Part shown: positions 9,672-53,112 of the stretch, in pieces
Layout of the letters: every line of letters begins with the position of its first letter
Numbering within the stretch: position 1 is the stretch's first letter
Source of the DNA: an uncultured Clostridia bacterium
GTDB lineage: Bacteria; Bacillota; Limnochordia; DTU080; RSA5
Assembly: GCA_964424335.1 (NCBI GenBank)
Contig: CAYRIY010000004.1
Span: forward strand, 9,068 to 73,067
Reading direction: 5' to 3'
Length of the DNA stretch: 64,000 bases
Program-made: the position numbers and the translations under genes
Notes under the pieces: generated by a model
Databases searched by the model: none
Told to the model about the DNA's origin: nothing
The model's input: the letters and a program-made list of their open reading frames with translations, nothing else

Positions 9672-11045
9672 TCAATGCGCTCTACTTGCCAGCGCGCCCT
9701 TCGCTCGGGGCGCGCTGGGGAGTTGAAACCCGCCTACCGTAAAGCAATACCGCACGAGGCGGCGGCGCGCGTGTTTGCGAATGGCGGGCTCGTCGAAGAC
9801 CATGGGCTTTGCATTCAGCTCCAAGATCCACGGGTGGCCGCTTCGATCGAGCGCCACATCCATCGAGAGTTCCCCGTGCGTCCCGCCCGTCGCGGCATCG
9901 AAGGCCGCAGCCGCCGTGACGATCGCATTTTCTAGATTTCTGACGACTTGATCGACGCGGTCAGCGCCCTTTAGCACGCGGCGGAGGAGCGGGATGAGTT
10001 TGGCCCTCGATCCTCCCCGAGGACGGTGGGTTGTGATCTGCCGCGGTCCTGCGATGCGCGCGGCCATCCCCGTCACGGTCCACCCTTTGACCGGATCGTT
10101 TTGGACCAATGCTCGGATGTCAAAGGGACGCCCGTGGTAACGCAGGAGAGGGATGGCCTGTTGTATCAAGTAGCGCCTTCCGGCCTGAAATCGGTCCAAC
10201 TGGGCCGAGAATGCGCCGATGTCGTAGTACGTCGCGGCCCTGATCCGCCCTTTTCCCAAGGTCGATCGCCAGAGGATTCGGCCGTTTGGGTGCAGATCGA
10301 TGCGGGCCGTTCCATTGCCAAGGCTGCCGCCGGCCCGTTTCATGTACACTTCGTGGTGCTTGCGCAAAAACTCCATCAAAGACGTTGCATCCCGATACAT
10401 GAGCGTCTCGGGGAGGTGCGCCTTGACGGCTTCGTGGTCCTTGAGGATGTTGTGCACTTCCCACTTGTCGAGCAATTTCGGGTTGAAAAAGTGGACGTCC
10501 GACTCTTCAATAAACCGCTTGCGGGCTGCGTCGACGCTCGCCCGCCGCTCAGCGTTGCGGTTGGGCACTCGGTTGTAGATGACGTGGGGAAATGGGAAGC
10601 GGCCGCGAACCCAGGCGCCGCTGCGGCCGCTGATCGTATACCCCGCGATGGTCCGATCACTCCAATTCACGCCTTCCGGCGTAAATACGTACGCGATCGC
10701 TCCCATCTCCTTGGCGACGAGGATCAAACGGCGAAACTGCCCGGAGCTCGCCGCAAACCGGCGCTTAGGATTCTTGCGTGAGGACGATGTGAAGATTGCG
10801 ATGACGGGGCCAAGTGACAAGCCGTGCTCGCTCGTACGCACGGAGACTCGCCAGCGACCCGGTAGGTGTAGGCCTTTTCGCTGAGAACTCACCAAGGCCA
10901 CGCGGGCTCCCGATGTCTTGAGTTCGATGGGCGTCAGACCGATCGTCACGCTGCCGGCCCGCCTGACCGCTTGGATCGCGTCGGATGTGGATTTCAGCTT
11001 TAGCATCCGACCGGGGCCGTTTTTTATTTCAAATTGCATGGGCAA
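9672..11045 (-). CDS. YheC/YheD-family ATP-grasp protein (paralog 1) with a ~90-aa N-terminal extension
   Basis: Shows the family signatures LGPVIAIF, VHFFNP..DKW, YMKRAGGSLGNG, PFDIRALVQ, TGMAARIAG, SMDVALDRSGHPWILELNAKP. It is the last gene of the minus-strand block. Confidence 0.7.
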   Translation of the reverse strand: MPMQFEIKNGPGRMLKLKSTSDAIQAVRRAGSVTIGLTPIELKTSGARVALVSSQRKGLHLPGRWRVSVRTSEHGLSLGPVIAIFTSSSRKNPKRRFAASSGQFRRLILVAKEMGAIAYVFTPEGVNWSDRTIAGYTISGRSGAWVRGRFPFPHVIYNRVPNRNAERRASVDAARKRFIEESDVHFFNPKLLDKWEVHNILKDHEAVKAHLPETLMYRDATSLMEFLRKHHEVYMKRAGGSLGNGTARIDLHPNGRILWRSTLGKGRIRAATYYDIGAFSAQLDRFQAGRRYLIQQAIPLLRYHGRPFDIRALVQNDPVKGWTVTGMAARIAGPRQITTHRPRGGSRAKLIPLLRRVLKGADRVDQVVRNLENAIVTAAAAFDAATGGTHGELSMDVALDRSGHPWILELNAKPMVFDEPAIRKHARRRLVRYCFTVGGFQLPSAPRAKGALASRAH

Positions 11046-43318: not shown

Positions 43319-44023
43319 ATGTCATTCATTGACTTTATCGATCCAATCGGATTTATGCTCCTGATCCCCGCCTTCGCGCTCGCGATGTACGCCCAGTTCA
43401 AGGTGCAGTCGACGTTTGCCAAGTACCTACAAGTGCGGGCAAAAAGCGGAATCACGGGAGCGCAGGTGGCCCGGACGCTTCTCAACGACGCCGGATTGCA
43501 CGACGTGCCGGTAGAGGTGATTCCGGGACGGCTGACCGACCACTACGATCCCAGGTCGCGCACAATGCGACTGTCGCCGGACGTGTACCACGGCACCTCC
43601 GTCGCATCGCTCGGCGTTGCCGCGCACGAGACAGGGCACGCGCTCCAGCACGCGGAAAACTACGTCCCGCTGACGATTCGCAATCAGATTTTCCCGATCG
43701 CCGCCTTCGGTTCGCAGCTTGCGATGCCGCTCTTTCTCATCGGCCTGATCTTTGCGTCTCCAGGTGTCAGTGGTTGGTTCATGGATCTTGGCATTTGGTT
43801 GTTCACCGCAGCCGTCGCGTTTCAAGTCGTCACGCTGCCGGTCGAGTTCAACGCGAGCTCGAGGGCCATGAAGCTCTTGGTCGATCGAGGCTTCATCGAT
43901 CGGGATGAGGCCCCGCGCACGCGCGCCGTCTTGAGCGCTGCGGCCCTGACCTATGTGGCGGCCGCGGCCGTGGCGGCGCTGCAGTTGCTCCGGCTCGTCC
44001 TCCTGCGTAATTCGAGGGATTAA
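43319..44023 (+). CDS. YugP-like membrane zinc metallopeptidase (Zn_peptidase_2 family)
   Basis: HExxH motif in AAHETGHALQH, flanking TM helices, and the FDPT-like N-terminus IDFIDPIGF. Confidence 0.6.
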   Translation: MSFIDFIDPIGFMLLIPAFALAMYAQFKVQSTFAKYLQVRAKSGITGAQVARTLLNDAGLHDVPVEVIPGRLTDHYDPRSRTMRLSPDVYHGTSVASLGVAAHETGHALQHAENYVPLTIRNQIFPIAAFGSQLAMPLFLIGLIFASPGVSGWFMDLGIWLFTAAVAFQVVTLPVEFNASSRAMKLLVDRGFIDRDEAPRTRAVLSAAALTYVAAAAVAALQLLRLVLLRNSRD

Positions 44024-45426
44024 TGCGGGGGCCAAGTCGGGCGCGCCTCGCGGCGGCGCATGTGCTCGAGCGGGTCGAAACGAAAGGGGCCTTTGCTCCG
44101 ATCGCGTTGACTTCGGCCATCCAGTCGCACGACCTCGCGCCTATGGATCGCAATTTGGCTACGGAAATCGTGTATGGCGTCCTCCGCTGGCGAGGACGCC
44201 TTGATTTTTACCTCTCGCGCTTTTCAAAGCGCAGGATCGGCTCCCTTTCGCCTTGGGTGCGAAACGCCATGCGGATCGGCGCCTTTCACGTTCTTTTCCA
44301 CGACTCGGTCCCTATACCAGTGGCGCTCAGCGAGAGCGTGGAGCTCGCGAAGGTGAAAGAGCGCTACGCTGCGGGCTACGTGAACGCGGTCCTCCGAGCA
44401 TTCGTGCGGGGGCGCGCCTCGGTGCGTTTCCCAGATCCAGACAAGGACATTGCCTCCTACCTCGAGACGTGGGAATCCCATCCAAGATGGCTCGTAGAGC
44501 GCTGGCTCGCCGCGTGGGGAAATGAAGGCGCCAGGTCTCTTTGCGCTACGAACAACGCGCCCGCCGACATCACCTTGCGGGTCAACGTCGCCAAAACTTC
44601 CGTCGAGGATGTGAGGGCGGGGCTGCTCAGTGTGGGAATCGAACCGAGCATGGGGCGTTTGACTCCGCATGCGCTCCGGGTTCGGGCCGCGGGCTCGGTC
44701 GAGGGCCTACCAGGCTTTGAGCAAGGTCTCTTCCACATTCAGGACGAGGGCTCTCAACTTGTCGGTTGGGCGGTGGCCCCGGACGGGCGCGGCCCCATCG
44801 CCGATGTTTGCGCCGGGCCGGGAGGGAAGACGACACACTTGGCCGAGCTTTGGCACGTTCGCTCAGGCCGAACCGAGCCCCCTGTGAGCGCCCCGATCGT
44901 CGCGTTCGACCTCCACGACCATCGCACAGCGCTCATAACAAGCAGTGCGGCCCGCCTGGGGCTGGATCGGCTCATCCGCGTCCACACAGCCGATGCGCGT
45001 GCGATCAGCCCCGATGTGTACGGCACGTTCTCTCGGGTGCTCGTCGACGCGCCCTGCACAGGGACAGGCGTCCTGCGTCGCCGCCCCGATCTGCGCTGGC
45101 AAAAGTCGCCCGAGGACGTCGCAGCGCTCGTCCAAACGCAGCGGGAGATCCTTACCGGCGCCGAGCGGCTGGTAGCAAAAGGAGGCACGCTGGTCTACTC
45201 CACGTGCAGCCTCGAGCCCGAAGAAAACATCGAAAACGCACGGTGGTTCCTGGCACGGTTCCCCGAATTTCGGCCCGAGTCGATGGCGGACGACCTCCCA
45301 TCGCTCGCGAACCTTGCAAGAGATCGATTCGCGCTCGATGGAGCCGCGCTGCAACTTGCGCCACATTTGGACGGGACGGATGGTATGTTTATTTTCCGAG
45401 CGATTCGACGAGAAGTTGGAAAATGA
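44023..45426 (+). CDS. rsmB: 16S rRNA m5C967 methyltransferase (NusB-like N-terminus plus SAM-MTase)
   Basis: DVCAGPGGKTTHLAE, ...DAPCTGTGVLRRRPD..., TLVYSTCSLEPEENE. Confidence 0.85.
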   Translation: MRGPSRARLAAAHVLERVETKGAFAPIALTSAIQSHDLAPMDRNLATEIVYGVLRWRGRLDFYLSRFSKRRIGSLSPWVRNAMRIGAFHVLFHDSVPIPVALSESVELAKVKERYAAGYVNAVLRAFVRGRASVRFPDPDKDIASYLETWESHPRWLVERWLAAWGNEGARSLCATNNAPADITLRVNVAKTSVEDVRAGLLSVGIEPSMGRLTPHALRVRAAGSVEGLPGFEQGLFHIQDEGSQLVGWAVAPDGRGPIADVCAGPGGKTTHLAELWHVRSGRTEPPVSAPIVAFDLHDHRTALITSSAARLGLDRLIRVHTADARAISPDVYGTFSRVLVDAPCTGTGVLRRRPDLRWQKSPEDVAALVQTQREILTGAERLVAKGGTLVYSTCSLEPEENIENARWFLARFPEFRPESMADDLPSLANLARDRFALDGAALQLAPHLDGTDGMFIFRAIRREVGK

Positions 45427-45499
45427 AGGAGTGATTGGAATCGCGGGGAATTCTTGACAAAATTTACTGGCGACCGCTATAAGGAGGATCTCCATAAGT

Positions 45500-46294
45500 A
45501 TGGCTTCACGACCGATCCGAGTGATGATCGCCGACAACAACGTCGAGCTGTGTCGAACGATCCAAGAGTTCTTGACCACGCAAGGGGACATGGAGATCGC
45601 TGCAATCGCGCACGACGGCAAGGAAGCGTTGGACCGAATGGAGGAGGCGAGGCCCGACGTCGTCGTGCTCGACATCACGATGCCCAACCTCGACGGCATG
45701 GCCGTCCTGGAAAGGATGGGGAGCCTCAACCTAAACCCACGGCCGACGGTCATCGTGCTGACCGCCATGGGGCGGGAGGACATCATCCAAAGGTTTACCG
45801 AGCTTGGGGCTGAGTATTTCATTATCAAGCCATTCGACCTCGAGCTGCTCGCCGAACGCATCCGACAATTTTCGAGCGGGTCCGGATCGGCGCTCGTGGG
45901 CGAGGCGAGGGGTGATCGGGGCCTCGTCCGGGGCGTAGAAGATGCCTCACTTACCGTCACGCAGCTCCTTCACCGCATGGGCGTCCCGCCGAATTTCAAA
46001 GGTTACAACTACTTGCGTGACGGCGTTTTGATGGTGCTGCGCGACACGCAGTTGCTTGGCGGCGCATTGACAAAGCGGCTCTACCCCGAACTTGCGGAGA
46101 AGTATCGCACGACGCCCGGCGGGGTGGAAGCGGCCATTCGAAACGCGGTGCTGGCATGTTATGAGCGCGGCAATCGCGAGTTTATCGACGAGCTGTGCGG
46201 CCAGGGACCGAGAGCAAAAAAGACATGTCCCACTAACTCGATGGTCATCGCAAAGCTTGCCGACCACATTCGCTTGCAGCAAAAGGTCGGGTAA
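45500..46294 (+). CDS. spo0A: Sporulation master regulator Spo0A (receiver domain plus Spo0A-specific DNA-binding domain)
   Basis: Receiver VMIADNNVELC...DVVVLDITMPNLDGMAVLERM...YFIIKPFDLELLAERIRQ. The C-terminal domain LLHRMGVPPNFKGYNYLRDGV...LTKRLYPELAEKYRTTPGGVEAAIRNAV matches B. subtilis Spo0A [20 protein letters not shown]...[25 protein letters not shown]. Confidence 0.85.
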   Translation: MASRPIRVMIADNNVELCRTIQEFLTTQGDMEIAAIAHDGKEALDRMEEARPDVVVLDITMPNLDGMAVLERMGSLNLNPRPTVIVLTAMGREDIIQRFTELGAEYFIIKPFDLELLAERIRQFSSGSGSALVGEARGDRGLVRGVEDASLTVTQLLHRMGVPPNFKGYNYLRDGVLMVLRDTQLLGGALTKRLYPELAEKYRTTPGGVEAAIRNAVLACYERGNREFIDELCGQGPRAKKTCPTNSMVIAKLADHIRLQQKVG

Positions 46295-46308
46295 TAACCA
46301 GCGACGCG

Positions 46309-46662
46309 CTACTCACCGGGCGGCGGGCTCGCCAAGCGCCGCCCCGATCTTGAGTATTGCTCCATCTCTCTGAGCAAGTCGTCCAAGAGCTTGATTTGTT
46401 GTTCTTTGAGCCGCACGATCCGCAGCACTTTCTGGTGCAGTTGGGGGGCGCGCGTGCTTAGCATGAGGTCTTGATAGTCATTTCGCAGGAGAAGGCGTTC
46501 AAGGAGCAGGAGCTTTTCAGTAAGGTGCTCGTGCACTTTGCGTTCCCACACCCTTGTCGTCCGTGGCCTATCGCACGCGGGACGGATGACGTTTTCTACA
46601 ATCACACTATGCATCGGCCGTGCGAAAGGCGCGGGCAAAGCCGCTCCATCTTGATTACTCAA
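46309..46662 (-). CDS. Hypothetical 117-aa protein (coiled-coil-like; low confidence)
   Basis: The ORF is convergent with spo0A in a locally lower-GC stretch. No recognisable motif was found. Confidence 0.25.
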   Translation of the reverse strand: MSNQDGAALPAPFARPMHSVIVENVIRPACDRPRTTRVWERKVHEHLTEKLLLLERLLLRNDYQDLMLSTRAPQLHQKVLRIVRLKEQQIKLLDDLLREMEQYSRSGRRLASPPPGE

Positions 46663-46684
46663 GGCCCAATCGGCTACACTATTG

Positions 46685-46724
46685 AATGAGAAAGAGCCCA
46701 GCGCTATATTCCGCCGGGCTCTTT
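46685..46724 (-). terminator. Candidate terminator downstream of tRNA-Pro on the minus strand (AAAGAGCCC / GGGCTCTTT 9-bp stem, then a U-rich tail on the minus strand)
   Basis: Inverted repeat 46691-46699 / 46716-46724 with a 16-nt loop. On the minus strand it is followed by CUCAUUCAAU. Confidence 0.35.
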
Positions 46725-46772
46725 CCCACTAAAAAACCGCCTATGGGCGCCGCCACGAAGGGGCGACGATGT

Positions 46773-46850
46773 TGGTCGGGGCGGCCAGATTTGAACTGGC
46801 GACCTCTGCGTCCCGAACGCAGCGCTCTAGCCAAGCTGAGCCACGCCCCG
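46773..46850 (-). tRNA. tRNA-Pro (anticodon CGG), CCA encoded
   Basis: The reverse complement reads CGGGGCGTGGCTCAGCTTGGCTAGAGCGCTGCGTTCGGGACGCAGAGGTCGCCAGTTCAAATCTGGCCGCCCCGACCA. Acceptor 7 bp CGGGGCG/CGCCCCG, D-stem GCTC/GAGC, anticodon stem CTGCG/CGCAG with loop TTCGGGA, T-arm GCCAG-TTCAAAT-CTGGC. Confidence 0.85.
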
Positions 46851-46880
46851 ATGCAACATCAATAATTCTAGCCCAACGTC

Positions 46881-47252
46881 TTAGGGGTTGTCAATGGGCG
46901 TTGCACCTGGTTGAGTCATAAATGGATCGTTGGTGACGTCGAGACGCTCGGCCGCAAATGCGTAAAACTTTTTGAGCGTCATCGCAAGCCTGCGGCGGTA
47001 TGCAGCAGACGACGATGTCGAAAGGAACGCCTGGATGTCCTCAGGCCTGCTGTTTTGGATGAGAAATCGCAAGTAGCGGCTTGCGTCGCCGACATAGTAA
47101 TACTCAGACTTGATTCCTTGATCGTATAGGTACTCGAGGTACGCCGTTAGAAAATGTACCCTGGCTTGTTTGCTCACAGGTCGACCACACACCTTTGATT
47201 GGCGAAAAAGCCTTGCGTATGTGGTAGTGTTGCCGCAGAGGCCTTGGCACAT
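46881..47252 (-). pseudogene. Possible remnant of a tyrosine-integrase N-terminal (SAM-like core-binding) domain with no catalytic domain
   Basis: LTAYLEYLYDQGIKSEYYYVGDASRYLRFLIQN...EDIQAFLSTSSSAAYRRRLAMTLKKFYAFAAERLDVTNDPF resembles the XerD/phage-integrase N-terminal helical domain. The ORF stops where the catalytic domain would begin. It lies 31 nt from tRNA-Pro and its start abuts the rlmN start, which makes it suspect. Confidence 0.35.
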
Positions 47253-47283
47253 TTCCCAGCACTCGATTCCTCGCTCGGCAGAA

Positions 47284-48345
47284 ATGGGGAAGTTAATGTC
47301 TACCGTCTCGTCAACTCAATTACTCAACATCGTGGGGATGGATCGGGCCGAATTGCGCGACCTCATCGAGCGCGCAGGTGAACCGTCTTACCGGGCGGAG
47401 CAGATCATGCGCTGGCTGCATCAGCGGGACGTCGACTCGATCGATTCGATGACCAACCTTTCCAAGGGATTGCGCTCAGCCTTGGCCGACCAATATCGCG
47501 TCGACCGGCTGGAAACGATCGCGTGCGAACGTTCGCAAGACGGCGTCACTAAGTTGCTGATGAAGCTTTGTGACGGGTTGACGATCGAATCCGTGCTCAT
47601 ACCCGAAGGAAAGCGTCAGACCGCGTGCATATCCTCACAGGCCGGTTGCGGGATCGGTTGCGCATTTTGCGCGACGGCCCTGGGAGGGTTTAACCGCAAC
47701 CTTGCGGCAGGCGAAATCGTCGATCAAGTGCGGGCGCTGGAGGAGAGCTCCGGCCACAAAGTGACCAACGTCGTCTTCATGGGAATGGGCGAACCGTTCC
47801 AAAACTACGCCAACGTGATCAAGGCGGCCAAACTATTGAATGACCCTTGGGGAAAATCGATCGGCGCACGTCACATCACGATCTCAACCTCGGGTGTTGT
47901 GCCGATGATCGAGCGCTTTACCGAGGAACGTTTGCAGTTTGTGCTCGCGATCTCCTTGCACGCCGGCACGAATGACGTGCGTGACCGACTGGTGCCGCTC
48001 AACCGCAAGTACCCGATCGAGGCGTTGATCGATGCGTGCAGACGGTACGTGACGACGACCGGCCGGCGCGTCACGTTTGAGTACGTCATGATCGACGGCG
48101 TCAACGACGGGCTCGACCAGGCCGAGGGCGTACTAAAGCACGCGCATGGGCTCATGTGCCACGTCAACTTGATTCCCCTCAACGCGGTGCCGGAGACGGG
48201 TCTCCTTAGATCGCGCGACGATGCGATCGAAAGGTTTGCCGAGCGCTTGCGCAAGGGCGGCCTGCCGACGACGATCCGGCGAGAGCGGGGGGCCGACATT
48301 CAGGCGGCGTGCGGACAGTTGCGCAGGAGCCGTCCACGAGCTTGA
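47284..48345 (+). CDS. rlmN: 23S rRNA/tRNA m2A2503 methyltransferase (radical SAM)
   Basis: The ATG at 47284 (MGKLMSTVSSTQLLN...) is used; the tracked ORF from 47170 is probably too long. Radical-SAM Cys triad ISSQAGCGIGCAFCAT and the conserved GMGEP. Confidence 0.9.
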   Translation: MGKLMSTVSSTQLLNIVGMDRAELRDLIERAGEPSYRAEQIMRWLHQRDVDSIDSMTNLSKGLRSALADQYRVDRLETIACERSQDGVTKLLMKLCDGLTIESVLIPEGKRQTACISSQAGCGIGCAFCATALGGFNRNLAAGEIVDQVRALEESSGHKVTNVVFMGMGEPFQNYANVIKAAKLLNDPWGKSIGARHITISTSGVVPMIERFTEERLQFVLAISLHAGTNDVRDRLVPLNRKYPIEALIDACRRYVTTTGRRVTFEYVMIDGVNDGLDQAEGVLKHAHGLMCHVNLIPLNAVPETGLLRSRDDAIERFAERLRKGGLPTTIRRERGADIQAACGQLRRSRPRA

Positions 48346-48420: not shown

Positions 48421-49248
48421 ATGGGCTTGCTCTCCGACGTCGAACAACGGATCGACGCCTTAGTGCGCCGGGTCTTTCCAAAGCGCGCCGGGGATCGGGT
48501 TCAGCCGCTCGAGATCGCCCGCGAGATGGCAAAGGCGATGGAGCGACAGCGAACCCTCAGCGTCGATACCGTGTATGTCCCAAATGTGTTCCATGCCACG
48601 GTCCACGAGGACGACCTTGAAGCGTTGCGTCCCGTGTTAAACACCGTGAAGCGGGACGCCGCAAACTACGTAGAGCGTATCGCCGCAAAGCGAGGGTACT
48701 CATTTGCAGGCGCCGTTCGGCTCGAGATCTCGGCCTCCGAGCGCGCCGAAGCGGGCCGAGTCGTCGTCACGGCAAGCTTTGACGAGTCCGGAAAGGCGGC
48801 GCCAAACCGATCGGACCATACAAACGTCCAGGCGCCCGCAGGTGATGGCGCGGACTTCCAGACGAGGCGTTACGACGCACTCGTCGCGAAGACCGCGTCA
48901 CCCTCACCTCGTGTGAGCGGCGCTTCGGCGATCTTGGAAGTGGTGAGCGGCCCGGAAACCGGAAGACGATTGGAACTGAAGGGGGAGCGCACGTACCTGA
49001 TCGGGCGTCTGGAGGAGGCAGACTTGGCCTTGAGCGACACCCGCGTCTCGAAGCGGCACGCCGAGATCAGCTATCGGGATGGCGTCTGGTGGCTCACAGA
49101 TCTCGACAGCACCAACGGCACACGCAAGAATGGAAGGTCCATCGTGCAGGAGACGTTGGCTGACGGCGACCAAGTGGCCGTTGGCCTTACTACGCTCGCA
49201 TTCACGCTCGAATCGGAGCGCACCAAGATTGGACTCGATCGGGTATGA
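48421..49248 (+). CDS. FhaA-like protein: N-terminal DUF3662-like domain plus C-terminal FHA domain
   Basis: N-terminus MGLLSDVEQRIDALVRRVF...LEIAREMAKAME. C-terminal FHA (TYLIGRLEEADLALSDTRVSKRHAEISYRDGVWWLTDLDSTNGTRKNG). Confidence 0.7.
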   Translation: MGLLSDVEQRIDALVRRVFPKRAGDRVQPLEIAREMAKAMERQRTLSVDTVYVPNVFHATVHEDDLEALRPVLNTVKRDAANYVERIAAKRGYSFAGAVRLEISASERAEAGRVVVTASFDESGKAAPNRSDHTNVQAPAGDGADFQTRRYDALVAKTASPSPRVSGASAILEVVSGPETGRRLELKGERTYLIGRLEEADLALSDTRVSKRHAEISYRDGVWWLTDLDSTNGTRKNGRSIVQETLADGDQVAVGLTTLAFTLESERTKIGLDRV

Positions 49249-49715
49249 CCATGGGATCCGTGCTTTGGTGGCTCGGGCGCATGGCGTTCCTTGCCGTGCT
49301 CCTCGGTTTTATCCTCCAACTATATCGCGCGCTGGCCGCCTCGAGCCCGACGATCGATGCTCGTCGTCGCGGGCGGTCGGGACGCCTGATGCTGGAAGAG
49401 GTTGCCGAGAGCGCCGAGGTATGGTTAAAGGAGGGAACCGGCGAACAGCGAAGGCTAACCCCAGGCGCGAGGATATCCGTAACCGACTGCATCCAGATCG
49501 GACGCGGGCCCGAAAATCAACTGCGCATCGTTGATCCTTACGTCTCAACAAGGCACTGCGTGGTGCGAGAAGTGGGTGGGCAATTCATCGTAACCGACCT
49601 TGGAACGACGAATGGAACGCGCGTTGACGATCGACCTTTGACAGGCCGCGCATCCCTCGATTCGGGAATGACAATTGAAGTGGGCCGGGCGCGGTTTCGC
49701 TTTGAGGTGAAGTAA
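49245..49715 (+). CDS. FhaB/FipA-like membrane-anchored FHA-domain protein
   Basis: N-terminal TM (VLWWLGRMAFLAVLLGFIL) plus FHA (IQIGRGPENQLRIVDPYVSTRHCVVREVGGQFIVTDLGTTNGTRVDDRPL). Confidence 0.7.
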   Translation: MTMGSVLWWLGRMAFLAVLLGFILQLYRALAASSPTIDARRRGRSGRLMLEEVAESAEVWLKEGTGEQRRLTPGARISVTDCIQIGRGPENQLRIVDPYVSTRHCVVREVGGQFIVTDLGTTNGTRVDDRPLTGRASLDSGMTIEVGRARFRFEVK

Positions 49716-49719
49716 GCGT

Positions 49720-50460
49720 ATGCGAGTTGGGTACGGGACCGATGCCGGCCGGGTAAGGCCGATCAATGAAGACTGTCTGTGGGCGGACGATAAGCTCCTC
49801 GTACTGGCCGACGGCATGGGCGGGCACCAAGCAGGAGAAGTCGCGTCCCGGCTTGCCGTGGAATCGGTCGTAGCCCACTTTCAAGATCACGAGGCGCCCG
49901 CGGATTGCGAAAAATCCAGCGTGGCGATCGATCTTGTGCGCGCGTCGGTCCGCGCCGCCAATGCGCTCGTCTACTCCAAGTCGCTCCAAGCCCCCGAACT
50001 CAAAGGCATGGGCACGACGCTAACCGTCGCGCTCCTCGTCAATGGGGAAGCGGTCCTCGGCCACGTGGGAGACAGCCGCGCTTATCTCGTCCAGCCCGAG
50101 TCGATCGTCCAACTTACCGAGGACCATTCGGTCGTGTGGGAGCTCATGCGAAGCGGCAGCCTGAGCAGCCAGGAGGCGCACGTCCATCCGTACCGCAACA
50201 TGCTCACCCGCGCGCTCGGCACCGCGATGACGGTCGAAGTGGACACCGTGAGGCTTCGTTTGAAACCAACGGACGGGCTGCTGCTCTGTTCCGACGGCTT
50301 GACGGGCGTGCTCTCTGATGAGGAGATTCACGCGATCATCTCGAGCAACTCCGATCCACAAGCCGCCGTCGACGCGCTGATCGAGCAGGCAAACGCCCGC
50401 GGCGCTCCGGACAACGTCTCCGCGATCCTAGCTCTTCCGGAGGGAGACGTTCGTGGATAG
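49720..50460 (+). CDS. prpC: PP2C-family Ser/Thr phosphatase (PrpC/PstP homolog)
   Basis: RVRPINED, DGMGGHQAGEVAS, GDSRAY, SDGL motifs. Confidence 0.85.
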   Translation: MRVGYGTDAGRVRPINEDCLWADDKLLVLADGMGGHQAGEVASRLAVESVVAHFQDHEAPADCEKSSVAIDLVRASVRAANALVYSKSLQAPELKGMGTTLTVALLVNGEAVLGHVGDSRAYLVQPESIVQLTEDHSVVWELMRSGSLSSQEAHVHPYRNMLTRALGTAMTVEVDTVRLRLKPTDGLLLCSDGLTGVLSDEEIHAIISSNSDPQAAVDALIEQANARGAPDNVSAILALPEGDVRG

Positions 50461-51730
50461 ACTCGTCCTGTGGGCGCTGGGCGCGGGCAACGCGGCGATC
50501 CTCCTTGCCGAGCTAGGCCGTGACGGCGCGCTCCACCTCAGCCACTTGGCACTCCCGGTCCTGTATACGATCGCCTATGTCGGTTCCATTTGGTTTTTGC
50601 GCGCGCGCGGTCGCCCGGTCGATCCGATGTTGCTTGGCGTCGTGTGCGCCCTGACCGGGATCGGCCTTGCAGCGCTCGTCCGCCTCGACGCTGACTTGGC
50701 GTTTCGCCAGGTCAGGTGGATCATCCTCGGGATCGGTTTGTTTACGTGGATCTCCCTTGTGAGCCCGTGGAACTGGGTGAGGCGTTATCGGTACGTCTGG
50801 GCGATCGGTGGACTTGCCCTCCTATCGCTCACCGCCTTGTTTGGCGTTCGGTCAGGGGGGGCGCGCTCTTGGCTCGATCTTGGTTTTTTTAGTTTTCAGC
50901 CCGTAGAAATAGCAAAGATTTGCGTCGTCTTTTTTCTCTCGTCGTATTTGGCCGAAAATCGGATGTTCTTGACCGGCGCCCCTGGAAGAGTCGGAGGCGT
51001 GCCGGCGCGCCTTGAGCATCTTGGACCGATCGGCGCCATGGCGCTGCTTTTTGCGCTGGCCCTTGTCGCGCAAAGGGACCTTGGCGCGGCGCTCATTTTG
51101 GTCGGGCTGTGCGTTTGGATGCTCACCGCTGCGACCGGCAGGCTGTTTTACGCCGTGATTGGGGGCGGTCTCGCCGCTGCCGGCGGCGCAGCGGCCGTCT
51201 TCCTCTTCGATCACGTGCGGATCCGATTCAAAGTCTGGCTCGACCCTTGGAGCATGGCAGACGGTCCCGGCTATCAAATCGTCGAGAGCATGTTCGCACT
51301 GGCCGGAGGCGGCTTTTTCGGCTCTGGGTGGGGACACGGGTTAGCGCACCGGATTCCCGCCGTCGAGACCGACTTTATCTACAGCCTCATCGTTGAAGAG
51401 GTCGGGTTCATCGGCGCCGCAGGCCTGCTCTTTTTGTTTGCAGTCTACTGTATACGGGCGCTTCACCCCGCACTCGACCCCAACGTGGAGGACTACGTCC
51501 GCCTAGGGACAGCGGGTCTTTCCGTATTGGTGGCCATGCAAACTTTTTTGATCGTGGGCGGCGTGACGCGTCTGTTGCCTGTCACGGGTGTGACGCTCCC
51601 CTTCGTCAGTTACGGGGGGAGCTCGATGATCTCATCCTTCGTACAGCTTGGCCTTGTCAATTGCGCGCTTGTCGCAAAGGAACGAACCCTCGATGAAGTA
51701 AGCGAGGCGCCGCGATGGAACGAGGGTTGA
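50453..51730 (+). CDS. rodA: SEDS-family peptidoglycan polymerase (RodA/FtsW)
   Basis: The GTG at 50453 overlaps the PP2C stop. Multi-TM protein with the conserved FQPVEIAK and the C-terminal LPVTGVTLPFVSYGGSSMI. Confidence 0.85.
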   Translation: MDRLVLWALGAGNAAILLAELGRDGALHLSHLALPVLYTIAYVGSIWFLRARGRPVDPMLLGVVCALTGIGLAALVRLDADLAFRQVRWIILGIGLFTWISLVSPWNWVRRYRYVWAIGGLALLSLTALFGVRSGGARSWLDLGFFSFQPVEIAKICVVFFLSSYLAENRMFLTGAPGRVGGVPARLEHLGPIGAMALLFALALVAQRDLGAALILVGLCVWMLTAATGRLFYAVIGGGLAAAGGAAAVFLFDHVRIRFKVWLDPWSMADGPGYQIVESMFALAGGGFFGSGWGHGLAHRIPAVETDFIYSLIVEEVGFIGAAGLLFLFAVYCIRALHPALDPNVEDYVRLGTAGLSVLVAMQTFLIVGGVTRLLPVTGVTLPFVSYGGSSMISSFVQLGLVNCALVAKERTLDEVSEAPRWNEG

Positions 51731-53112
51731 AATGGACCAAGCGCTTGATCGTCGGAGCATTCGCCCTGCTTACAGTCTGGACTGCGTACTGGAGCGTCGT
51801 CGCCGCCCCGGCGCTTCGGGTCGATAGTCGAAACGTGCGGACTTTGCGGGAAGAGCGCTCGGTTTTGAGGGGCGAGATACTTGCTGCCGACATGCAGCCG
51901 CTCGCGGTGAACGACCCGGTGACCGGGCGCCGGACGTACGTCGGCCCGTTGTCGCTTGCCCACTTGGTGGGATACTCCGACGTGCGCTACGGCAAGTCCG
52001 GAATCGAGCGGGCTTACAACGGTGAACTGCTCGGCATGACGGATCAACTCGATCGAGCGCTCGACAAGGCGATGGGAAGGCCGCTTAGGGGCTGGGACGT
52101 CGTCACTACCATCGACCTTGAGATTCAGCGTGCGGCTCATGAAGCGCTGGGCGATCGAAAAGGGGCCGTCGTCGTACTCGATCCAAACGACGGATCGGTG
52201 CTCGCGATGGTGAGCAGCCCCACGTTCGATCCAGGTCGCCTGGGCGATGTGATCGGCCTTGCGGATGATGGCGAAGGGCCGCTCTACAATCGAGCGACGA
52301 TGGGGCAGTACCCGCCCGGCTCCGCGTTCAAGCCCGTGATCATGATCGCCGCGCTCGAAACCCGCGCCGCGGATCCGGGGTACGTTTTTGACGATCAAGG
52401 TTACGTCGTCATCAACGGCAAGCGGATTGAGAACTCCGGGCAGACGGCATACGGCCCGATTGCGCTCGACGATGCGCTTGTAGTCTCTTCGAATGCCGCG
52501 TTCGCGCATTTGGCCGTGGAAACCGGCGCTCGGGCCATCCTGGAGACCGGATGGGCGCTTGGGATCGGGATGAGGCCAAGCTTGTCGATCCCGGCGGCAG
52601 GTGGACGACTTCCCACGGCCGAGGAGGTCGCGGACGAGGCGGCGCTGGCGGCCATGGGCATCGGTCAAGGATCGCTGCTCGTCACGCCGATGCAAATGGC
52701 CATGGTCGCAGCGGCGATTGCAAACGGCGGATGGGCCGTGGAGCCGCGTGTCGTGCGCGCTTTGCGCGCGCCCGGCGGCGCGGTAAATGAGGCGCCTCAT
52801 TCCACCCCGGTGCGGGCGATCTCACCGGGCGTGGCGCACATCGTGCGTGAAGCGATGATTCGTGCCGTAGAGAGCGGAACCGGCGCCCAAGCGAAGGCGC
52901 CCGGCGTGCTCGTGGCAGGGAAGACGGGCACGGCGGAGAACCCTCACGGGCGGCCCCATGCGTGGTTCATCGGCTTTGCCCCTGCTAGATCGCCTCGCAT
53001 CGCGTTTGCAATCGTCGTTGAAAACGGCGGAGGCGGGGGCGCGCAGGCGGCTCCGATCGCACGCGCGATCGTTTCGAGCACGCTGCGTTCCAGCGCCGAA
53101 GGAGATTATTGA
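51715..53112 (+). CDS. pbpA: Class B penicillin-binding protein (transpeptidase; PbpA-like short form)
   Basis: SxxK (PGSAFKP), SxN (VSSNAAF) and KTGT (GKTGTAE) motifs, with an N-terminal TM. Confidence 0.85.
   Translation: MERGLKWTKRLIVGAFALLTVWTAYWSVVAAPALRVDSRNVRTLREERSVLRGEILAADMQPLAVNDPVTGRRTYVGPLSLAHLVGYSDVRYGKSGIERAYNGELLGMTDQLDRALDKAMGRPLRGWDVVTTIDLEIQRAAHEALGDRKGAVVVLDPNDGSVLAMVSSPTFDPGRLGDVIGLADDGEGPLYNRATMGQYPPGSAFKPVIMIAALETRAADPGYVFDDQGYVVINGKRIENSGQTAYGPIALDDALVVSSNAAFAHLAVETGARAILETGWALGIGMRPSLSIPAAGGRLPTAEEVADEAALAAMGIGQGSLLVTPMQMAMVAAAIANGGWAVEPRVVRALRAPGGAVNEAPHSTPVRAISPGVAHIVREAMIRAVESGTGAQAKAPGVLVAGKTGTAENPHGRPHAWFIGFAPARSPRIAFAIVVENGGGGGAQAAPIARAIVSSTLRSSAEGDY

Follow-up and report, generated by a model that had tools for sequence, protein, structure and literature searches.

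In the Bacilli and Clostridia, spo0A occupies a canonical spoIVB-spo0A locus downstream of recN, and in Bacillus subtilis it carries a sigma-H promoter, Ps. B. subtilis also has a cluster in the order priA-def-fmt-yloM(rsmB)-yloN(rlmN)-prpC-prkC-cpgA(rsgA). The catalytic domain of tyrosine recombinases is marked by the residues R-H-R-Y, and mobile elements specific for tRNA genes recombine inside the 3′ end of the tRNA, so that their integrase gene comes to lie on the 3′ side. The Limnochordia are deep-branching, spore-forming Bacillota. Here we present an analysis of positions 45427-47283 of a 64,000-nucleotide (nt) stretch of DNA from an uncultured member of this class, designated as the window, in which the interval between rsmB and rlmN holds spo0A, a tRNA-Pro(CGG) gene and two small minus-strand genes, orf75 and orf98. 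An earlier note on this DNA had read the interval as the scar of an integration or excision event at the tRNA gene, next to an open reading frame (ORF) of 123 amino acids (aa) resembling part of an integrase. All of the elements it listed, namely rsmB, full-length spo0A, a convergent small ORF, tRNA-Pro(CGG), an integrase-like ORF and rlmN, are present.

The comparative data lead us to a different interpretation, in which the interval is very probably a conserved, class-wide arrangement of the Limnochordia, old and working, and not a mobile-element scar. In this class, extra and separate genes sit between rsmB and rlmN. The spo0A gene would be read from a sigma-H-type promoter of its own, with read-through from rsmB possible; tRNA-Pro(CGG), on the opposite strand, would have its own sigma-70 promoter and a terminator-like hairpin behind it; orf98, divergent from rlmN, encodes the core-binding (CB) domain of a tyrosine recombinase and nothing else; and orf75 encodes a predicted helical-hairpin protein in a variable slot, in the window's subclade only. 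Most likely there was a single rearrangement, which dates from the ancestor of the Limnochordia or from an earlier time.

The evidence that carries this interpretation is the gene order of related loci (L-numbers below). Relatives were found by scanning one genome per GTDB species for Spo0A, and gene order was established by tblastn with the window proteins. The scan yielded L001, L002 and L003, from metagenome-assembled genomes (MAGs) labelled Clostridia, Limnochordia or unclassified, with Spo0A proteins 74-77% identical to that of the window. In L001 the order is priA-def-fmt-Zn-peptidase-rsmB-spo0A-orf75(-)-tRNA-Pro(CGG)(-)-orf98(-)-rlmN-FhaA-FHA-PP2C, and L003 follows the same order as far as its contig end at the tRNA. 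The contexts of orf98 homologues that were looked up (L023/24, L025, L026, L027/28, L029/30) gave the same block every time. Three more loci were chosen as distant Spo0A homologues, ~55% identical, from a large protein search. One of these, L036, is the complete genome of the cultured Carboxydichorda subterranea (CP141615, class Limnochordia), which has rsmB-spo0A-tRNA-Pro(CGG)(-)-rlmN, and the other two, L037 (a Limnochordales MAG) and L038 (a MAG), have rsmB-spo0A-tRNA-Pro(CGG)(-)-orf98(-)-rlmN. The order and orientation are thus conserved even where the housekeeping proteins share only 37-60% identity. Two details of individual loci were recorded in passing. Between the Zn-peptidase gene and spo0A of L002 (9733-10001) rsmB is apparently missing or moved, the rest of the block being intact. 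In L036 (CP141615.1, 10087-11209) rlmN matches in two frames that change over near 10812-10817, and only its C-terminal 122 aa are included in the public gene call; either the frameshift is genuine, making a pseudogene, or the assembly is in error.

Outside the class the picture differs. The control locus L004, from a non-Limnochordia Bacillota MAG with a Spo0A 44% identical to that of the window, has a SpoIVB peptidase gene 5′ of spo0A and no tRNA gene there, whereas no SpoIVB is encoded in the 64-kb window. The earlier observation that spo0A lies outside its canonical spoIVB context therefore stands, and the placement, unusual against the Bacilli and Clostridia, is yet the rule within the Limnochordia. 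A comparison of spo0A contexts among relatives, which had been proposed as a check, went largely against the scar: the placement is conserved across the class, and the integrase-like gene is kept with it in most loci. The literature searched held no description of the spo0A neighborhood in Limnochordia.

The spo0A gene itself (45500-46294, + strand, 264 aa) had been described as full-length and directly following rsmB, and this was borne out. Its product scores 277.6 bits on TIGR02875 (cutoff 200), with 85.9 bits for the receiver domain (PF00072) and 100.6 bits for the Spo0A-specific C-terminal domain (PF08769); it aligns end to end with the sequences of PDB entries 9phz, 1dz3 and 1fc3, and with 1fc3 and 1lq1 over residues 151-263. 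These scores assign it as an equivalog-level member of the family, with a predicted receiver and a predicted Spo0A-specific DNA-binding domain. The GC content at third codon positions (GC3) of spo0A is 0.75, as against ~0.73 for the genes of this genome, so that spo0A is not compositionally foreign.

One change in the receiver domain deserves attention. In the acidic pocket (45533-45541) the protein has D12-N13-N14, with Asn replacing the second Asp, giving I-A-D-N-N-V-E versus A-D-D-N-R-E in B. subtilis and G. stearothermophilus. Asn at this second acidic position (B. subtilis D11) was found in all of the ~120 closest homologues as well as in L036, L037 and L038, whereas the non-Limnochordia Spo0A proteins of L004, L005 and L006 keep D-D. 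The D-to-N change thus tracks the clade that has the relocated spo0A. The phospho-acceptor region LDITMP and the LTA and KPF motifs are conserved. By homology with CheY D13, we take the replaced residue to be an active-site metal ligand.

The spacer between rsmB and spo0A is 73 bp. Within it and the end of rsmB lies a motif, GAAGGAGTG-N11-GGGGAAT (45425-45451, + strand), which straddles the rsmB stop codon and is a candidate sigma-H-type promoter for spo0A. The sigma-H consensus from B. subtilis is RNAGGAWWW-N11-12-RNNGAAT. A relaxed form of it, RNAGGR-N3-N11/12-NNNGAAN, occurs exactly once within the 220 nt 5′ of spo0A in each of 10 loci out of 10, against a background in the window of 0.03 per 220 nt, and it persists even in the distant L036-L038, in which the sequence around it is unrelated. 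This pattern suggests that spo0A keeps a sigma-H-dependent promoter of its own, as in Bacillus. Read-through from rsmB would also be possible, because the spacer is so short and no terminator was detected inside it. A sigma-70-like sequence, TTGACA-18-TATAAG (45454-45483), was considered and rejected: its -10 hexamer overlaps the spo0A ribosome-binding site, and it was absent from the promoter-scan list. A search upstream of spo0A for 0A boxes as well as sigma-H elements had been suggested, and only the latter half of it was productive. The 0A box TGTCGAA occurs 17 times in the window versus 10.5 expected, a count reached by 5 of 100 shuffles. Both spo0A and orf98 contain one copy (at 45551 and 47016, respectively); the rsmB-spo0A spacer contains none, and none is conserved 5′ of spo0A or orf98 in the relatives.

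Convergent with spo0A, the tRNA-Pro(CGG) gene (46773-46850, - strand) is intact and ends in CCA (ARAGORN; Rfam RF00005, 63.2 bits). It is the sole tRNA gene that either method found in the 64 kb, and a permissive Rfam search over 44800-47800 returned the tRNA and nothing else. The gene is present in the same slot and orientation in nine of the nine related loci examined. In front of it is a sigma-70 promoter candidate, TTGACA-18-TAGAAT (46865-46894, - strand), which matches 11 of 12 consensus positions and overlaps the last codons and stop of orf98; TTGACA...TATAAT was also read by eye in the 5′ flanks of the tRNA in L001, L002, L023, L025, L027, L037 (where it is TATACT) and L038. Past the 3′ end of the tRNA lies a GC-rich inverted repeat, a likely terminator, with 22-nt arms (46682-46703 and 46712-46733) that are 82% complementary. 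The terminator scan called none at this position in the window, and an equivalent hairpin with a T-run was read by eye trailing the tRNA in L001, L023, L025, L027 and L038. The tRNA gene would thus have its own sigma-70 promoter and hairpin terminator. Between this hairpin and orf75 is a conserved non-coding element of ~34 nt, TAGTGTAGCC(C/G)AT...TAATCAAG (46650-46683, - strand), which is found in the window, L001, L002, L003, L023 and L025, and partly in L027, which has no orf75. The element matches nothing in Rfam and shows no obvious resemblance to a promoter consensus.

The two small genes required a correction of their boundaries. In the 117-aa ORF convergent with spo0A, conservation among homologues is confined to the last 75 codons, from V43, a GTG at 46536 that is ATG in several relatives; in the 123-aa ORF it begins at V26, whose codon, GTG at 47177, is ATG, TTG or GTG among relatives, leaving 98 aa. 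The GC3 of the upstream extensions is 0.52-0.55, compared to 0.61-0.71 for the conserved parts and 0.71-0.75 for the neighboring genes. The true products are accordingly those of orf75 (46309-46536, - strand) and orf98 (46881-47177, - strand), 75 and 98 aa long, and not the 117- and 123-aa ORFs. The start of the integrase-like ORF had been thought to abut rlmN; with the conserved start at GTG 47177, the two divergent genes do not overlap and are separated by a spacer of ~106 bp.

The likeness of orf98 to an integrase is weak in sequence and clear in fold. Against Phage_int_SAM_1, the family proposed for this comparison, the window protein itself stays sub-threshold, with E-values of 0.1-0.17 and 12.6-13.3 bits against a gathering score of 22.3, and 7 of 20 family members give sub-threshold Phage_int_SAM matches, the best at E = 0.0024. 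However, one member, the database protein P0193, which matches the orf98 profile at E = 3e-27, scores above the cutoffs, with 32.3 bits for SAM_4 (>27) and 28.7 bits for SAM_1 (>22.3). In addition, hhalign aligned the orf98 profile with P0215, an integrase that has the Phage_integrase domain, at a probability of 90% and E = 1.5e-6, and AlphaFold2 run with the family alignment gave a confident four-helix model with a mean predicted local distance difference test score (pLDDT) of 83.8. The fold of orf98 is that of the four-helix CB domain of tyrosine recombinases, so the resemblance claimed for the 123-aa ORF, to the N-terminal SAM-like domain of an integrase only, was sound even though its length was not. 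Other searches were less informative: the orf98 profile produced only noise against PDB chain sequences, a search of a phage database gave no match, and an hhalign comparison with residues 1-122 of E. coli XerD gave a probability of 4% and was not usable.

A conserved N(D)P stands close to the C-terminus of the protein, at what by eye is the point where the linker to the catalytic domain starts in Xer-type recombinases. No match to the Phage_integrase catalytic domain was found in orf98, which ends at residue 98 and whose homologues are all short. Nor is there space for such a domain, because the tRNA starts only ~30 bp past the orf98 stop. The family is very small: a collection of 5.8 billion proteins held 28 relatives, all of 86-162 aa, and an exhaustive hidden Markov model (HMM) search of 1.84 billion representatives returned 29 matches or clusters, all but two of 43-131 aa. 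Every member with a named source or an examined context is from a Limnochordia-type genome and lies in the same chromosomal slot.

Within this family the alignment has 20 invariant columns. The proportion of nonsynonymous differences (pN) is 0.19-0.27 against a near-saturated synonymous proportion (pS) of 0.68-0.89 (0.23-0.27 and 0.68-0.73, respectively, for L001, L025 and L027), and the ratio of nonsynonymous to synonymous substitution rates (dN/dS) is ~0.10-0.16. Identity between the window and L037 or L038 is 57-59% for orf98, compared to 39-44% for rsmB and 44-55% for rlmN. The gene is therefore intact and under purifying selection. Given its invariant basic residues (R34, R37, R63 and K70), orf98 probably acts as a small nucleic-acid-binding protein and would do so without recombinase activity.

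Between the tRNA and spo0A the content of the slot varies: it holds orf75 in the window's subclade and almost nothing in L027, L036 and L038. In L037 the slot (9737-10510, - strand) carries an unrelated 257-aa ORF with no Pfam match. In the window, orf75 and spo0A are convergent and 14 bp apart, and adjacency to spo0A is confined to the window's subclade. We found 42 orf75 homologues, of 63-121 aa, the named sources being hypothetical proteins from MAGs labelled Limnochordia, Limnochordales or "Firmicutes". The family has 19 invariant columns and pN of 0.12-0.15 versus pS of 0.76-0.92, and orf75 is thus also under purifying selection. The AlphaFold2 model is a helical hairpin (pLDDT 82) with helices at residues 2-27 and 31-60. 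No Pfam or NCBIfam match was found for orf75, and a profile search of PDB chain sequences returned noise only. In other Limnochordia the homologues are not near spo0A and always lie just 3′ of a conserved ORF of 106-118 aa. These two-gene units are at 6652-7228 in L031, 6655-7228 in L032, 3332-3904 in L033, 6658-7285 in L034 and 6657-7228 in L035, and the genes around them vary. The partner ORF (orf106; MRAAVQRAWVL.NMEKIGPGGFYHLAYA...) had no Pfam match in the two members scanned, and it is not encoded in the window.

That the interval is a recent scar at tRNA-Pro, with the 123-aa ORF a decaying integrase fragment and the ~1 kb around it leftover foreign DNA, is already contradicted by the comparative data and is scarcely credible. 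Such an event would be in keeping with the slightly lower GC content at 46200-47400, the weak Phage_int_SAM_1 match and the position of the ORF adjoining the tRNA. The dip in GC, also reported in the earlier note, is real but small (0.52-0.57 over ~46200-47400 versus mostly 0.58-0.68 in the flanks), and it arises because promoters, a hairpin, a tRNA and two short genes lie there; two conserved genes, the tRNA and signals fill almost the whole 1 kb. The supposed fragment has a constant length, its invariant residues and its low dN/dS, the block keeps its order and orientation at the housekeeping divergence given above, and orf98, encoded on the tRNA strand, is located 5′ of the tRNA gene. Direct repeats of the tRNA-Pro 3′ end, which had been suggested as a sign of attachment (att) sites, were sought and are absent: with up to 3 mismatches allowed, the 26-nt 3′ end occurs only once in the 64-kb window, no tRNA word of at least 12 nt recurs in the 64 kb, a single 11-mer does so versus ~5 expected by chance, and a general repeat search gave chance-level pairs only. 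With an order that is class-wide, an orf98 that is intact, selected and 5′ of the tRNA, a tRNA gene with a conserved promoter and a trailing hairpin, a spo0A of native composition, no flanking mobility genes and no att-like repeats, the scar proposed in the earlier note is not upheld. A much older event is unlikely too, but has considerably more in its favor. In that scenario a tyrosine-recombinase element, possibly carrying spo0A, would have inserted at or near tRNA-Pro between rsmB and rlmN in the Limnochordia ancestor, the integrase later losing its catalytic domain and the CB domain being kept for a new DNA-binding role. The homology of orf98 to the integrase CB domain, its end just past the N(D)P linker position (read by eye), its place beside a tRNA gene and its GC3 of 0.61, below that of its neighbors, all fit, as do the variable content of the slot at the tRNA 3′ side (orf75, an unrelated 257-aa ORF or nothing) and the presence of orf75 homologues at a different locus in other Limnochordia. 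On the other hand, orf98 is 5′ of the tRNA and not at its 3′ end, there is no att-like tRNA repeat and no trace of a catalytic domain in the ~30 bp from the orf98 stop to the tRNA, no phage homologue was found for orf98, no other mobile-element genes were seen among neighbors that are all housekeeping, and the composition of spo0A is native. As an account of origin this scenario is compatible with a conserved, working arrangement; the present sequence records no such event.

For the small genes taken by themselves, two further explanations were weighed. We give next to no credence to the idea that they are chance open frames of high-GC DNA in a non-coding spacer, which the data already contradict. 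Spurious frames are indeed common in high-GC genomes (a 10-kb stretch has 100 ORFs with 40 aa or more), and the long N-terminal extensions of the public gene calls are indeed non-coding, but amino acids are conserved at 57-92% where synonymous sites are saturated, the start position is kept as ATG, GTG or TTG, and the predicted folds are compact and confident. It is also highly improbable, if less so, that orf75 acts directly on Spo0A~P, whether as a Spo0E-like aspartyl-phosphate phosphatase or as a modulator of another kind. Spo0E-family proteins have the general architecture of a helical hairpin, as does orf75 with its ~57 conserved residues, and in the window's subclade orf75 is convergent with spo0A and 14 bp away. 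Where its second helix begins (Q-L-H/R-Q/E-K-V-L), orf75 has an invariant Q32 and K36 that loosely recall the signature SQELDxLI; the signature Ser and Asp, however, are absent from orf75. Moreover, eight members gave no Pfam SpoOE-like match at E-values up to 10, PDB sequences gave no match to Spo0E-like proteins, and the structural matches were non-specific, reflecting a generic hairpin shape only. The homologues found elsewhere are away from spo0A, behind the unrelated conserved 106-aa ORF, and many Limnochordia with the spo0A arrangement have no orf75.

Several observations weigh against a conserved, class-wide working arrangement, and they set limits on how far it can be taken. The left junction is not invariant, since L002 keeps the order but has no rsmB match upstream of spo0A. 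Furthermore, orf98 is absent from L036, and orf75 from L027, L036, L037 and L038, so neither gene is indispensable to the arrangement. The lower GC3 of orf98 relative to its neighbors, already mentioned, belongs here as well. The age of the arrangement is bounded rather than dated by a survey that covered Limnochordia loci and a non-Limnochordia control, and placement was judged at the level of the locus. The promoters and terminators are consensus matches, and the functions suggested for orf98 and orf75 are read from their sequences and predicted folds.

If the arrangement is nevertheless old and working, as we think, it has consequences for annotation and for the study of sporulation. The rsmB-spo0A-tRNA-Pro(CGG)-rlmN junction is usable as a genomic marker for the Limnochordia, and gene calls of 117 or 109 aa and 123 aa, here and on public contigs, should shrink to 75 and 98 aa. 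These products, orf75 and orf98, represent two new small families of conserved uncharacterised proteins, of which orf98 is a rare case of a tyrosine-recombinase CB domain kept alone under purifying selection and a candidate for domain exaptation. The clade-wide D-to-N change raises the question of Spo0A phosphorylation in a deep-branching class; the title of a 2016 paper by Watanabe et al. (cited in PMC11456536) describes its type species, L. pilosa, as a spore-former that is Gram-negative. One may speculate, although we consider it rather improbable, that Limnochordia run a modified sporulation-initiation module in which the D-N Spo0A is joined at most loci by an exapted orf98 as DNA-binding partner or regulator of the locus. 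Were this so, orf98 would be no neutral neighbor but a working part that this lineage has added to the Spo0A circuit, and its targets would be spo0A, the divergent rlmN-FHA-PP2C-PknB operon, or chromosome handling during sporulation. None of this overturns the current understanding of sporulation.

The genes that frame the interval are typical housekeeping genes. Upstream, rsmB (44023-45426, + strand), for the 16S rRNA m5C967 methyltransferase, is the final gene of a priA-def-fmt-Zn-peptidase-rsmB run and was identified at equivalog level by NF011494 (402 bits) and the Pfam domains NusB, RsmF-B_ferredox and Methyltr_RsmB-F. Downstream, rlmN (47284-48345, + strand), for the dual-specificity RNA methyltransferase, scores 421.9 bits on TIGR00048 and has the Pfam domains RlmN_N and Radical_SAM; its start is ATG 47284 or 47296, and the public gene call, on a contig encoding an identical Spo0A, is 349 aa. 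Further 3′ (48421-53112) the window encodes an FhaA-N/FHA protein, a second FHA protein and a PP2C phosphatase, and two further long ORFs at 50453-53112 match, by position, the FtsW/RodA and penicillin-binding protein (PBP) transpeptidase genes that precede a PASTA kinase gene in related loci. An actinobacterial operon has the order fhaA-fhaB-pstP-rodA-pbpA-pknB, which the layout 3′ of rlmN recalls more than it does the Bacillus prpC-prkC pair.

Set against known systems, the locus combines familiar parts in a distinct way. It shares with the canonical spo0A locus an equivalog-level Spo0A and a sigma-H-type motif in front of the gene; unlike it, the window's spo0A is without spoIVB, stands behind rsmB and convergent with a tRNA-Pro unit, and is inside the priA...rsgA cluster, and its product has the Limnochordia ADNN in place of the Bacillus ADDN. 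The flanking genes are those of the B. subtilis cluster in the same order, but in the Limnochordia spo0A, tRNA-Pro and orf98 are inserted where rsmB would meet rlmN. A Zn-peptidase gene ahead of rsmB, and FhaA/FHA and FtsW/PBP genes behind rlmN, are further additions in the window and in most of the related loci. As with islands and prophages integrated at tRNA genes, an integrase-related gene stands beside the tRNA, and different lineages have different DNA 3′ of the tRNA; unlike them, the locus lacks att repeats as well as cargo and mobility genes, its integrase-like gene is 5′ of the tRNA, and the block is fixed across the class. With the CB domains of tyrosine recombinases (lambda Int CB, PDB 2oxo; Phage_int_SAM_1/_4) orf98 shares the family relationship seen in P0193, which passes the Pfam cutoffs, and in the hhalign match; it differs in standing alone with no catalytic domain, in being itself below the Pfam cutoffs and in belonging to a very small family. 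Finally, the integrase-derived DNA-binding regulators MrpR of SPbeta (PDB 8a0a) and SroF of phi3T (PDB 9rd5) are phage-encoded proteins of ~320 residues, whereas orf98 is a CB domain alone, encoded on the chromosome in a housekeeping context.

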